Of a stretch of DNA of 64,000 nt, positions 56,538 to 62,736 are shown piece by piece (positions within the stretch are counted from its first letter, which is position 1; each line of letters opens with the position of its first letter). A model generated the notes under the pieces. That model did no database searches, had not been told where the DNA came from, and worked only from the letters and a program-made list of their open reading frames with translations. The stretch spans positions 2,173,320 to 2,237,319 of the forward strand of contig ML992501.1 of assembly GCA_010093995.1 (NCBI GenBank), read 5' to 3'. A program made the translations under genes and the position numbers. The stretch is from Elsinoe ampelina (taxonomy: Eukaryota).

Positions 56538-59500
56538 ATGTCGGTCGTTTACAAGGATCGTGACCGGGACCGGGACCGGGACGGTGGCCGATCCTACACA
56601 ACCGTACGCCGTTACAGGGTTCCCGACGACGACGATGCTCGCAGCACAAGCGTCCGCGAGAGAGATGTCGTTATCAAGCGAGAACGCGACCCGGCACCTG
56701 TCAAGGAAGTCAAGGAATACAGAATCACAGAGCGTGAAGTTGAACCACGAAAAGAAGAGTACAGGGTAGTCACCCGCGAGCGCGAAGTCGAGCCGACTCG
56801 GAGGGAGCTTGAATACCGTGTAGTTGAGCGGGAGAGAGAGCTCGAGCGATCCCCCGTCTCTCGCGAATACAGATATGAAAGAGACATCATTCGTGCGCCA
56901 TCACCGCCAGCCGAGCAGCACATCCACGAAACACGCATCGAGCGCGACATTGAGAGGTATCAGCCACCCCGCCGAGACGACTACGACCTTGAGAGATACA
57001 CCCGCTCAGTCGACTATTATGCGCCTGAGCCCAGACCGATCATCATCCGTCAAGACCCGCAACCGATTATCATCAAGGAGGCTCCACGACCAGAACCCAT
57101 CGTGCTCGAGCGCGAACGACCTCGCTACGAAATCATCGAACGCGAAGAAGTAAGAGAAGATCGTCAGCTCGTCCGTCGTGAGGAGCCTCCTCCACCTCGC
57201 AGAAGAGATGAGGAGGACTACTACTATGAGCGCCGGACACGAGAGGTCGACCGCGGCCCGAGAAGGGATGGTGGAGGGGATTACATAGACGAGGAAGAGT
57301 ACCGATACCGTCGCGAAGTCGACCCACGCGACTCTGCATCACAGCATCCCAACGACAGATACAGCGACGACGAAGTCTATGTTCGCAAGGAGAAGGTCAG
57401 CGAGCGCTCCAGATCTGGCTCACCTCACACTCGCCGTCATCTTGCTGAAGGTGCCGTTGCTGGGATTGGCGCTGCAGAGATCCTTCGCCACCACAAGAGA
57501 CGACAAGGTGAAGAACCCGGACATCGTGGACGCAACATGATCGGATCGGCTGCACTCGGTGCGGTTGCCGTAGAAGGTCTCAGCAGGGCTAGATCCAAGG
57601 CTAGGAGCCTTCGTGGTGGCTCACGCTCAAGGTCTTCCAGCAGCGAAGCAGCCTACTATCGTTCCAGGAGCAAGCATCGCAAGCACAGGAGCCGCAGTCG
57701 TAGCAAGTCTCGTGTGCGCCAGCTTGGTGGTGTTGCAGCCGTTGCAGCGGTGGGTGCTCTTGCCGGCTATGCCCTTCGCAACAGAAACAGGCAGCAACAA
57801 ATTGCAGAGCGTCGCAGCCGCTCCCGTCACCGCCGCGGATCTGTCTCTAGCGAAGAAGTCGTCGTCGAGAGAAGCGCCAGCGCAGATCCCAAGAAGAGCA
57901 AGAACCGAATCGCCCAAGCTGGTCTCGCTTCTGCTGCAGCTGCCGGTCTGTGGCAGCGTATGCGTAGTCGGTCACGAGGTGCCAAGGGCAAGTCTCGCTC
58001 TCGCAGCAGGCTTCGGACTGGCGTACCTGTCGCTGCTGCTGGTCTGGGCGGTGCCGCCATCGCCAACTTGTATGAGCGTAACAAAGCTCGTAAGGCAGCC
58101 AAGCAAGGTGGTGTCGCTCGGGAAAGGTCATTGTCCCGCTCAAGGAGCCGAAGCAGATCTCGAAGCAGGTCTGTCCCATACTCGGAAGATCCTGGCCTCC
58201 GACGCGCGAGTAGCGACCCAGCTCTCATCGAATACGGCGGCGATCCAATCTATCCTGAGCGTGAACGACCTGGAGAATACCGACGCCGCCACCGTGGCAG
58301 CTCAAGCGACTCCAGTCCAGACCGTCGTCGCCGACGTGGATCGCGAAGTAGGAGCAGGAGTCGAAGCCGAAGCAGGACTAGGGGTCTCGCCGAAGCTGCC
58401 GCTGCCGCTGGTGTTGCCGGAGCCGCTGCGCATCACATTACTAAGAAGAATGAGCGCAAGCGAGCCGAGAAGGAAAGAAGGCGTGAGTCCCACTCCAGCG
58501 ATGACCTCGCCGATGACGATCTGACCGACGTACCAGGCCGTGAGCGTGATGAAGAATATGCTCCGGAACAGCAGTACACTCCCCCACCAATGGGTCCCAA
58601 TGCTGGACCATATACGCCGCAGCAGGAGTTCTACCCCCAGTCGAACAGCTTCCCGCCTCCGCCGCAAAATCAGCCGTACGACACGAGGGAGGCTGAGTAT
58701 GCACAACAAGGTCAATACCCTCCGTACAACCCTGCAGACTACCCACCAGGTCCTACCAACGCCACTCCAACTCCTGGCGTTGAAGGGTACCCTGCCTCTC
58801 CTAACGACCAATACCACTATCATCCCAACGAGACTTTTGCCGGCGATGCACGCTATGACGAGCGCCAATACCACAACGCGAGGGCAGGACCAGAAAATGT
58901 GAGTCCTAATTTCGGTACCGGCGCCGACGACGAGCACGGTGCGTGATCGTCCTTTTATGATTTTACAATTCCAATCTTTCCTCCACGATCACACGATATG
59001 CTTTGCTATGGCACATACTAATACTGTTCAGATGGTATGAGAACCCCTCGCGCCAAATCTGTTCAATTCGCCGACCCTTCATCCTCTCCCAACCGCCACC
59101 GCTCTCACCCACGCGACTCCCTAAACCCAGAAGACGAACGCACCCGCAACGCCCACGAAGCCGACCTCTCCTCCGCCGACGGCGAACGCAAACGGCAACG
59201 CCGCCGTCGCCGCCGCCGCGACCGCGAAGGCTACTCGAGCGGAAGCGACTATCCCACCTCATCACCAGAAGACGAACGCTATGACCCCCGCGATAGAGAT
59301 CGTGACCGAGATCGAGACCGCGACCGCAAACGCGAAGGCAAGAGACGAAGCCGCTCCGCTGACCCCGAAATCCGTCCACGCAACACTCGCAGAGACACGG
59401 CGGCCAGCGTGCAGAGCGACGAGACGGAAGACCTCCCGCCAAGATTCGACGAGAGTGGTCGCAAGATGCCGGAGAAGGGGGAGGATCCGATGATGGATAA

Positions 59501-60426: not shown

Positions 60427-61079
60427 CTATGCGACGAGCTGCACAACCCCACCAGCCTCCTTGATCTTCCTCTCCGCGTCCTTGGAAAAGTACCTCGCCC
60501 TCACAATGATGGGCACATTGGGGATACGTCCCTTGCCGAGAACCTTGGAGTAACCGAGCGGGAGCAAGTCGAGAACAGGCGCAGTCTCCTTGCCCGCCTT
60601 GCCGGAGAGGTACTTCTCGCGCTGCTCAGCTGGGACGAGAGACCAGAGCTAATGTCACCACGTCAGCCACCATTTGCCCCCCATCCATATATCCACCCCA
60701 AGCAGAGGGAGGGAAGTGCTCATGCTCATGCTCACCTTGTCCAAGTTGACCACTGGCTTCCAGAACTGGTTCTGCAGCTTGTGGAAGTACCGCATGCCCA
60801 CTTTTCCAAAGTATCCAGGGTGGTACTTGTCGATGTTGGTGCGGTGGTGGTGCTGACCACCCGCCATACCGCGACCACCGGGGTGCTTTCGGTGCTTGCC
60901 TACGCGACCGTGGCCGGCGGAGACGTGGCCACGGCTGGAATCATGGTGTTAGCGAGCGTTTTTGGAGGGAGGGGGGTTGCGCTGCATTGGTGGGGGGAGA
61001 CAGGGTGATGGTGCATGGTGGGGGGCGCGATTGTGAGGAGGACGTACTGCTTTCTGGTCTTGGTTAATCTGGTCGGCAT
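60427..61079 (-). CDS. RPL28: 60S ribosomal protein uL15 (L27a / yeast L28)
   Basis: [59 protein letters not shown]...[10 protein letters not shown]. Introns 60935-61047 and 60649-60735. Confidence 0.97.
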
Positions 61080-61395
61080 TGTGGTTGATGTGCAGGGTGC
61101 TGTGACTGACTGCTGAGGTTGTGATGTTGGCGCGAGTCCAGTCTGCGGTGAGGTTGAATTTTTCGGAGAAACGAATTTGCGTGGCCGAGAAGTCTTGGCG
61201 GAGCCGCGGTTCCAGTTTCCTATTGCGTCTGATGCCGGCTCATTTGTGTTCCTAAAACTTGCTCATACTGGTTCGAGGCACATTCGATTATTCTGCAGTC
61301 TCGCCCGCAACCTCATCTATGTCAAATTGCACATTTGATGTTGTAGCATTCTTATCGCTCGTATCTCTGGATTCTGCGAGCGATTCTTGTATGTG

Positions 61396-62736
61396 CTAGA
61401 CTCTATCGAAACGACGCTGGCTACTCCATTCACCATTGTCGAAGTTTCCGCTCCAGTTGTTACCTTGAAATACCTGGCCAATGTTGGACTGCGAGCCGAT
61501 CATGAAATTCGATGCCGGTTCAAACCCACCGCGCATGGATTTGTTGCCGCCGCTACCAAGGGATTCTGCCTCGCGCGTCTGCGCAGCCTGAGCAACTAGG
61601 CGCGGGCCTAGATCGCGACACCATCTCCTCAGCTCGCCACGGATGAACTTGTACCCAGGATCTCTTTCGTCCCTGAACTTTGCGACGCCAGAGTGGTCTG
61701 CTTGCATGGCCACCGAGGTGTATGCATTCAGGGTCGCGGAATTCTTGGGCACGACCTGAGCAAGTCAGTTTAGATCCTGTACACAGCACAAGCGCGTGAT
61801 GACGAACCAGACTCCCAATAGCACTAGTGTTGAGGTCCTCAAAGAAGCAAGTGATTTGCCACTTTGGGAGACCTGCTGCATCTCGGTCACGGATCATGGT
61901 ATGGAATTCCTTCTGTATACGTGCCAGGACTTCCGACTGAGGCTCCAAGACGCTGACGATGGCATCGTTGGCTCGTATCAGGACCATGACCGATTTCCCG
62001 ATCTTAGCCCAATCCGCCAATTGAGACCCGCAATGCGGAGTGGCCATGAAAATTATGCCCCTTGTCGCCTCAACGATGCTTTTGAGATGCGGCTCGGCGC
62101 TGTTCTTCGAGTACAGAAGCATCTGGATGACATGTCAGCTGGAGATCGGTGAATCATAGTTGCATGGCATACGTCCTCTACTACCAGTCCACCAAGACTA
62201 TGAGCAATGAAGAACAAAGGTCGATCGGCCTGTGTTTTGTTGTAAGTATCGGACGATTCTTGTGCGACTTCAGAGTCGCCTCACCTCGCCTTCCGAGTCT
62301 CGCTCATGAGCAAGGCTCGTAAGGAACGTTTGTGCATGGTCGCCTATCCTGCTTTGCGACACTGTGGACCACATGTGGCCAACGTCTGCATCGTAGCCGT
62401 AAGTGAAAATGCGGGCATTTGGAAAATCACGTGGCAGCAGTTGCTCCGGCCAGAAACAAGATGTTGACCGATGAGTCCAAGTCGTCTCGCGATCACCGGT
62501 GAGCCCATGGACCAACACTATGCTGATCTTGTCAATCATCGGAATATATCACATATCGACTCTGGAATGTCTTACTCTACTGCTCGGTTCTTGTTCGCTG
62601 GCTCGCTGCACTGGAACATACCAAGCTCACCTCGCGGTCTGGCGGGAAGCTCCACTTCAGAACCACTTCCATCTTTCTCCGCATTTCGGCTCAGCTTCTT
62701 CGGCTTGTCTTTCTTTTTGTCGTCTTTGAACGGCAT
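61396..62736 (-). CDS. SesB-like (SERAC1/DUF676-type) alpha/beta hydrolase with a C-terminal putative amyloid signalling motif
   Basis: Five exons (introns 62523-62575, 62230-62284, 62123-62172, 61756-61807). Motifs DIVLVHGLTG, FWPEQLLP.DFPNARIFTYGYDA, nucleophile elbow FIAHSLGGL, GIIFMATPHCGS and ADHSGVAKF. Tail NFMIGSQSNIGQVFQGNNWSGNF. Confidence 0.9.

Follow-up and report, generated by a model that had tools for sequence, protein, structure and literature searches.

Described families of fungal amyloid signalling motifs amount to a handful in the excerpts of the literature used here (PMC9815663, PMC3321046, PMC12261475, PMC4518210, PMC5485727, PMC8086366, PMC7889193, PMC12258605, PMC12881547, PMC516043, bioRxiv 2020.01.06.895854), and the authors of a 2022 survey regarded fungal motif diversity as lower than bacterial (PMC9815663). 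In the same excerpts, the occurrence of a motif at the N-terminus of an NLR and at the C-terminus of the SesB protein encoded next to it serves as a criterion for recognizing such motifs, and the sigma locus is described as a sesB gene next to a NACHT-ankyrin NLR with a 5′ intron.

Here we describe a gene pair in a 64,000-nucleotide stretch of the Elsinoe ampelina genome (the window). The two-gene NLR/SesB architecture has been known since 2012; the motif within it is the uncatalogued part. We lean towards reading this motif as what couples the two genes of an NLR amyloid-signalling module, and as representing an uncatalogued subfamily, most likely related to the second half of sigma in a shortened and diverged form. 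Its function as an amyloid signalling motif we regard as highly probable, with amyloid formation itself suggested by analogy.

Two divergent genes with one shared motif

The effector side is a SesB-like alpha/beta hydrolase gene on the reverse strand (61396..62736; P0001, 376 aa, DUF676/PF05057). A spliced five-exon model (62736-62576, 62522-62285, 62229-62173, 62122-61808 and 61755-61396) equals P0001, so that an extra intron considered 3′ of the motif is unneeded. Introns 2 and 3 are spliced in RNA contigs, in which splicing of introns 1 and 4 was not seen. Pfam recovers DUF676 with E=1.6e-7; the nucleophile elbow HSLGG points to S144, kept in 113/120 homologues, and the conserved histidine to H278, kept in 95/120 (among the matches listed; 215 were found). 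An AlphaFold2 monomer has a confident hydrolase core, whose predicted fold matches lipases and thioesterases, a long helix that ends at residue 324 and a tail of low confidence (pLDDT <50 over residues 341-373). The 3′ half of the gene, including the motif exon, is covered by a spliced antisense RNA (61279..62201, forward strand; GT..AG introns 61764-61821 and 61899-61949), present in run X1 only at a contig depth of 4-10 and with a longest ATG frame of 44 aa. Since this RNA starts near the upstream region of a ribosomal protein gene (60427-61078, reverse strand), the two possibly share a bidirectional promoter.

The receptor side is a 1257-aa NACHT (NPHP3_N)-ankyrin NLR, in which there is no effector domain. 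The window holds the 5′ part of its gene (63534..64000, forward strand), which continues beyond the window end to L002:6677. A 50-base intron (63634-63683) is predicted, and an X1 contig (63466-64304) has it removed, the motif exon being followed there by the NACHT exon; the NLR motif exon is thus seen to be transcribed and spliced. After the ankyrin repeats comes a tail of about 300 residues, acidic and rich in proline and serine (L002 5600-6677, forward strand, beyond the window).

The two genes are head-to-head, divergently transcribed neighbours, with about 0.8 kb between their start codons (62737..63533) that may be a shared promoter. No third partner gene (sesA or HeLo) was found near the pair, whose neighbours we take to be genes for ribosomal protein uL15 and Sec24. 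Further off, the window encodes a large R/S/E-rich protein with DUF3824 (56538-58946, forward strand), unrelated to the motif pair.

On the hydrolase, the motif is NFMIGSQSNIGQVFQGNNWSGNF (61441-61509, reverse strand; residues 340-362), followed by 14 residues and the stop; on the NLR it is NFIVGGLSNVGQAFQGNSIGVF (63558-63623, forward strand; residues 9-30), on the short first exon. The motif thus lies at the NLR N-terminus and the effector C-terminus of adjacent genes, as in published NLR amyloid pairs. Over the first 18 residues compared, 11 are identical, and the pattern NFxxGxxSNxGQxFQGN proposed in an earlier note on this DNA fits both copies exactly. When all 2148 stop-to-stop frames of the window were searched with the effector copy (phmmer), the NLR copy was the top match (E=5.3e-5; next match E=3.7), and with a model built from five non-window copies alone, the two in the window are recovered at E 1.9e-6 and 1.2e-4 (next match 0.12). 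Genome-wide, the DNA pattern for NVGQxFQG matches exactly at the two window copies only. Two further matches with two mismatches both fall in unrelated frames and were rejected as extra copies: one frame presumably encodes a protein like the tRNA-splicing endonuclease Sen2, and the other has no NLR or hydrolase context. Genome-wide searches found no further motif copy in E. ampelina, and each partner carries a single copy, as the note had stated. The shared motif is therefore real and chance similarity is ruled out.

Its composition was likewise described correctly as free of charge and proline; it is rich in G, N, Q and aromatic amino acids and falls within the 17-40 aa of such motifs. The hydrophobic pattern can be called alternating only loosely, as F-M-I and V-F place hydrophobic residues side by side.

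Motif copies in other fungi

Five of 120 hydrolase homologues, including P0001, carry the motif at their C-terminus (among the matches listed; 215 were found), from E. ampelina, E. australis, Vermiconidia, Elasticomyces and Saxophila. In a quick tree built from 49 of the first 70 hydrolase homologues, the five full-length or near-full carriers form a single branch (SH-aLRT 100). A search of 1.84 billion proteins with a motif-only profile returned six matches: the E. australis NLR, which was part of the profile, and five new proteins, all of them SesB last-exon fragments with the motif at the end. The resulting family counts 12 copies (10 hydrolase tails and 2 NLR starts) with the consensus [NH][FY][FY]xGSMxNVGQVFQG[SN]NIGT[FY]. 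Its cores hold 18% G, 15% N and 11% Q and no P, K or R, and the motif is conserved over the 12 copies where the preceding linker is not. As judged from sequence, we define a subfamily with the core N-x-G-Q-h-F-Q-G-x-N-x-G (h, hydrophobic), borne by a clade of Dothideomycete SesB-like proteins.

The pairing is also kept in a second species. The best NLR homologue among those found is B9Z65_5960 of E. australis, which begins with NILQGGLNNIAGSAFQGHNSGTINF and is adjacent to the hydrolase B9Z65_5959 (PSK36145 and PSK36144, respectively); a second assembly has the pair adjacent too (TKX20440/20439). In both E. australis partners, the core is preceded by one additional residue. The E. australis NLR copy scores highest against its own effector (66; next 57), and the E. 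ampelina NLR copy scores 59 against its own effector and 63-70 against six other copies; as the latter does not fit its own effector best, within-pair co-evolution is visible in only one of the two pairs. A longest contig of 29,944 bases is common to fragment P0145 and a second NLR homologue, P0122, which suggests a third pair.

The motif sits on its own short exon in the NLR gene (63534-63633), and the homologues P0122, P0138 and P0139 are unspliced calls without the motif. Gene calls of this kind lack the first exon, so that NLR-side copies would stay hidden in them. The NLR homologue search returned no full-length NLR protein from the E. ampelina genome itself.

Searches beyond these sets yielded little. 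Metagenome pattern scans gave 159 matches, none of which was confirmed, and a second scan gave 0. Among 185,579 prokaryote genomes there were six pattern matches, none of them C-terminal or opening a frame long enough for an NLR, and we judge them to be chance (about 2 expected by estimate; two came from one species). A PDB sequence search with the motif profile returned one match at E=2, likewise chance. The ESM Atlas had no usable match for the hydrolase tail, and with P0142 it gave matches in Ascomycota clusters only. A literature search joining Elsinoe, NLR and amyloid found no paper, and the strings GQVFQG and VFQGN were absent from the literature matches listed, none of which concerned fungal NLRs.

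Elsewhere in the E. ampelina genome there are two other SesB-like domains (L009:G000:C2:1442410 and L010:G000:C7:241509), each beside a P-loop NTPase frame and without the motif. These loci are apparently all-in-one NLRs.

Catalogued classes and the likeness to sigma

One part of the check proposed in the earlier note, scoring the motif against the Pfam amyloid-motif profiles, gave no match. This holds for both window copies and the five new fragments, for 30 selected proteins (E up to 10) and for the 120 listed homologues (E up to 0.01), while PF17106 and PF17046 had no match genome-wide; these negatives are weak, since the searches had no positive control and Pfam also misses sigma-like tails such as P0017. 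The naming of the profiles needs one correction: Ses_B (PF17046) had been taken for sigma, but it stands for the PP motif, and the profile for sigma is NACHT_sigma (PF17106). Stronger evidence comes from the 2022 survey, whose published text describes a scan of all NLR N-termini with 16 fungal motif HMMs at E 0.01 and scores the orthologous E. australis NLR PSK36145.1 as "noasm" (PMC9815663). In the supplementary text of the survey that was searched, its partner PSK36144 was not found (PMC9815663).

Published patterns agree with these scans. The PP/RHIM core G-h-Q-h-G, to which the motif had been said not to conform, occurs in 0/12 copies, as do the PP spacing, the PUASM and GDQN patterns and the full HRAM register (hydrophobic 5, 8, 10, 16 and 18 with G19), which 7/12 copies fit if position 8 is left out. 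The two-repeat layout of HET-s HRAMs is indeed absent, as every copy is single. Sigma submotif A (GxGxQF) occurs in 0/12, even as a loose G.Q[FY]; submotif B (GGTQNINT) is approached by G[GS].QN in 2/12, and the looser G[GST]xxN[IV] is found in 12/12 but belongs to the pattern used for cutting out the cores. The threefold A/B arrangement of sigma is not present in the alignments. Taken together, the pattern counts, Pfam and the "noasm" scan place the motif outside every testable family, and calling it unclassified is right within that scope, i.e., these classes only.

The likeness to sigma is weak and indirect, and was traced through other SesB tails. Many SesB homologues end in G-x-h-N-x-x-x-G-G-K-h-h-x-G-x-N-F-x-G-x-V-x-F or similar, and, compared by eye without gaps, the P0017 tail agrees at 12/23 positions with the final 23 residues of the Nectria SesB sigma peptide. 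By the same comparison, made by eye on G/N-rich sequence, the window copy reaches 6/23 with one gap and the E. australis effector copy 9/23 with two gaps. Aligned with 17 tails picked by eye, the family profile has an hhalign probability of 64%, above 60/60 column shuffles, and the range over tail groups, also chosen by eye, is 39-64%. An SSGG/GRD tail group scores 19.1 versus 17.5 for the six most sigma-like tails, and 17.5 is reached by 1/60 shuffles. Of the 12 copies, 10 lie above the 95th percentile of shuffled cores and 1 alone above their maximum; conversely, no outside tail scored against the family HMM rises above the shuffled maximum (6.3 versus 8.1). Of the two origins that had been offered, a divergent sigma/PP relative or a new family, the former fits better, given a weak likeness to SesB tails alignable with sigma's second half and the PP-like flanks. 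We rank a shortened sigma relative first and a diverged PP motif second.

Stand-alone SesB homologues carry further tails rich in G, N and Q without a Pfam match (C-termini of P0005-P0119). They include sigma-like GGK..xG.NF.G.V.F, GQIxQG, FNGPISG, SSGG..GRD and AGRDINHG types.

Proposed role, alternatives and known systems

By inference from NWD2/HET-S, binding of a ligand by the ankyrin repeats would lead the NACHT domain to oligomerise, and the N-terminal motifs so clustered would form a beta-arch amyloid seed. This seed would template the hydrolase tails, which would bring about assembly and activation of the enzyme and then, probably, defensive cell death; the published excerpts describe the involvement of SesB-like domains in cell death as indirect. 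Speaking against this reading, NLR-side and effector-side copies are found in unequal numbers (2 and 10). Co-folding of 3 effector and 2 NLR motif copies gave a score of 0.01, which speaks neither for it nor against it.

The same mechanism could be served by a diverged PP motif that kept the flanks N-x-G...G-x-N-x-G-x-h while its odd palindrome centre (h-Q-h) became even (Q-h-F-Q), which we consider unlikely. The published PP motif, given as FxGx(x)NxGLQLxGxNxGxL with the core NxGxQxGxN, is reported from SesB homologues and from around residues 5-9 of NLRs, and all 12 copies here contain N-x-[GAD]-x(4,5)-G, 7/12 continuing as G-x-[NTS]-x-G; N-V-G-Q-V-F-Q-G-S-N is itself pseudo-palindromic. However, neither G-h-Q-h-G nor the spacing N.G(3)G.N.G is found in any copy, PF17046 does not match and the orthologue was missed by NLR07 and NLR39. 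We give equally little weight to the motif belonging to a published class, be it the effector-side sigma-cluster HMM, an HRAM variant or a BASS family. "Noasm" for PSK36145.1 and the absence of PSK36144 from the supplementary text searched argue against it, even if profile HMMs are described as insensitive for short motifs and Pfam, run without a positive control, misses tails like that of P0017, for which there is an ungapped alignment with the sigma peptide. An HRAM variant would draw on the register of hydrophobic 5, 10 and 16 with Q18 and G19 (7/12 copies), but position 8 is an invariant G, position 15 has no R or K and there is no repeat. For a bacterial family, one may point to a possible resemblance to BASS1; the six prokaryote matches, by their positions, speak against it.

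Still less probable is that the shared peptide is not amyloid, but a short docking motif or the relic of fission of a fused SesB-NACHT gene. Such fused genes apparently exist in the E. ampelina genome (L009), and one sigma-like peptide is reported in the published excerpts not to have aggregated; yet simple fission does not leave a head-to-head orientation, the motif is conserved where the linker before it is not, and in composition, length and placement the peptide is like proven amyloid signalling motifs. With some doubt, one may also conjecture a separate fungal amyloid family with the even pseudo-palindromic core N-x-G-Q-h-F-Q-G-x-N, which would cross-seed with none of sigma, PP and HRAM and would be one branch of a broader, undescribed group of G-x-h-h-Q-G tails on stand-alone SesB hydrolases bridging sigma/PP/HRAM space, the effector being restrained by the spliced antisense RNA as well.

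The motif was overlooked in an NLR that the 2022 survey had included. The pair offers a minimal one-receptor, one-enzyme system for asking by what means a SesB-like hydrolase is activated through an amyloid switch, and the matched one-residue insertion by which the E. ampelina and E. australis pairs differ allows the specificity of seeding to be tested on natural variants. As the sequence combines sigma, PP and HRAM features, it is also relevant to whether these families have a common origin.

HRAM (HET-s) comes near in register, particularly HRAM4, which has Q18. Its effectors are HeLo or PNP_UDP, whereas a hydrolase is found here; a single-copy HRAM exception, NLR12, is published on PNP_UDP. 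PUASM (FxGxGxQxxGxGxF) and GDQN are likewise short single-copy G/N/Q motifs that join an NLR to an adjacent effector, but these effectors are PNP_UDP and SesA. The PP systems (HELLP/SBP/PNT1; PF17046; NLR07/NLR39; with RHIM and BASS3) share with the E. ampelina pair a SesB-type effector, one copy close to where the NLR starts and a pseudo-palindrome, along with flanks like N-x-G and G-x-N-x-G in 7/12 copies. Core glycines are separated by 4 or 5 residues here and by three in PP, and the 7/12 copies with both flanks have 4; neither PF17046 nor PF12721 (Pfam, no positive control), nor NLR07/NLR39 in the orthologue scan, gave a match.

Sigma (Nectria haematococca het-eN/sesA/sesB; PF17106, NLR28) likewise has a NACHT-ankyrin NLR adjoining a SesB hydrolase, a single shared G/N/Q/aromatic motif and an intron in the NLR 5′ region, and our motif loosely resembles submotif B together with sigma's terminal G-x-N-aromatic-x-G stretch. 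In contrast, the motif has about 22 aa versus 25-40 in sigma, lacks submotif A and the threefold repeat, and comes from a locus without sesA. It starts at NLR residue 9, a position typical of PP and HRAM in the published excerpts, which place sigma typically at 50-99; PF17106 (Pfam, no positive control) does not detect it, nor did NLR28 detect the orthologue in the published scan. Set against these systems, the motif is an uncatalogued variant, probably related to sigma, within the known two-gene architecture.
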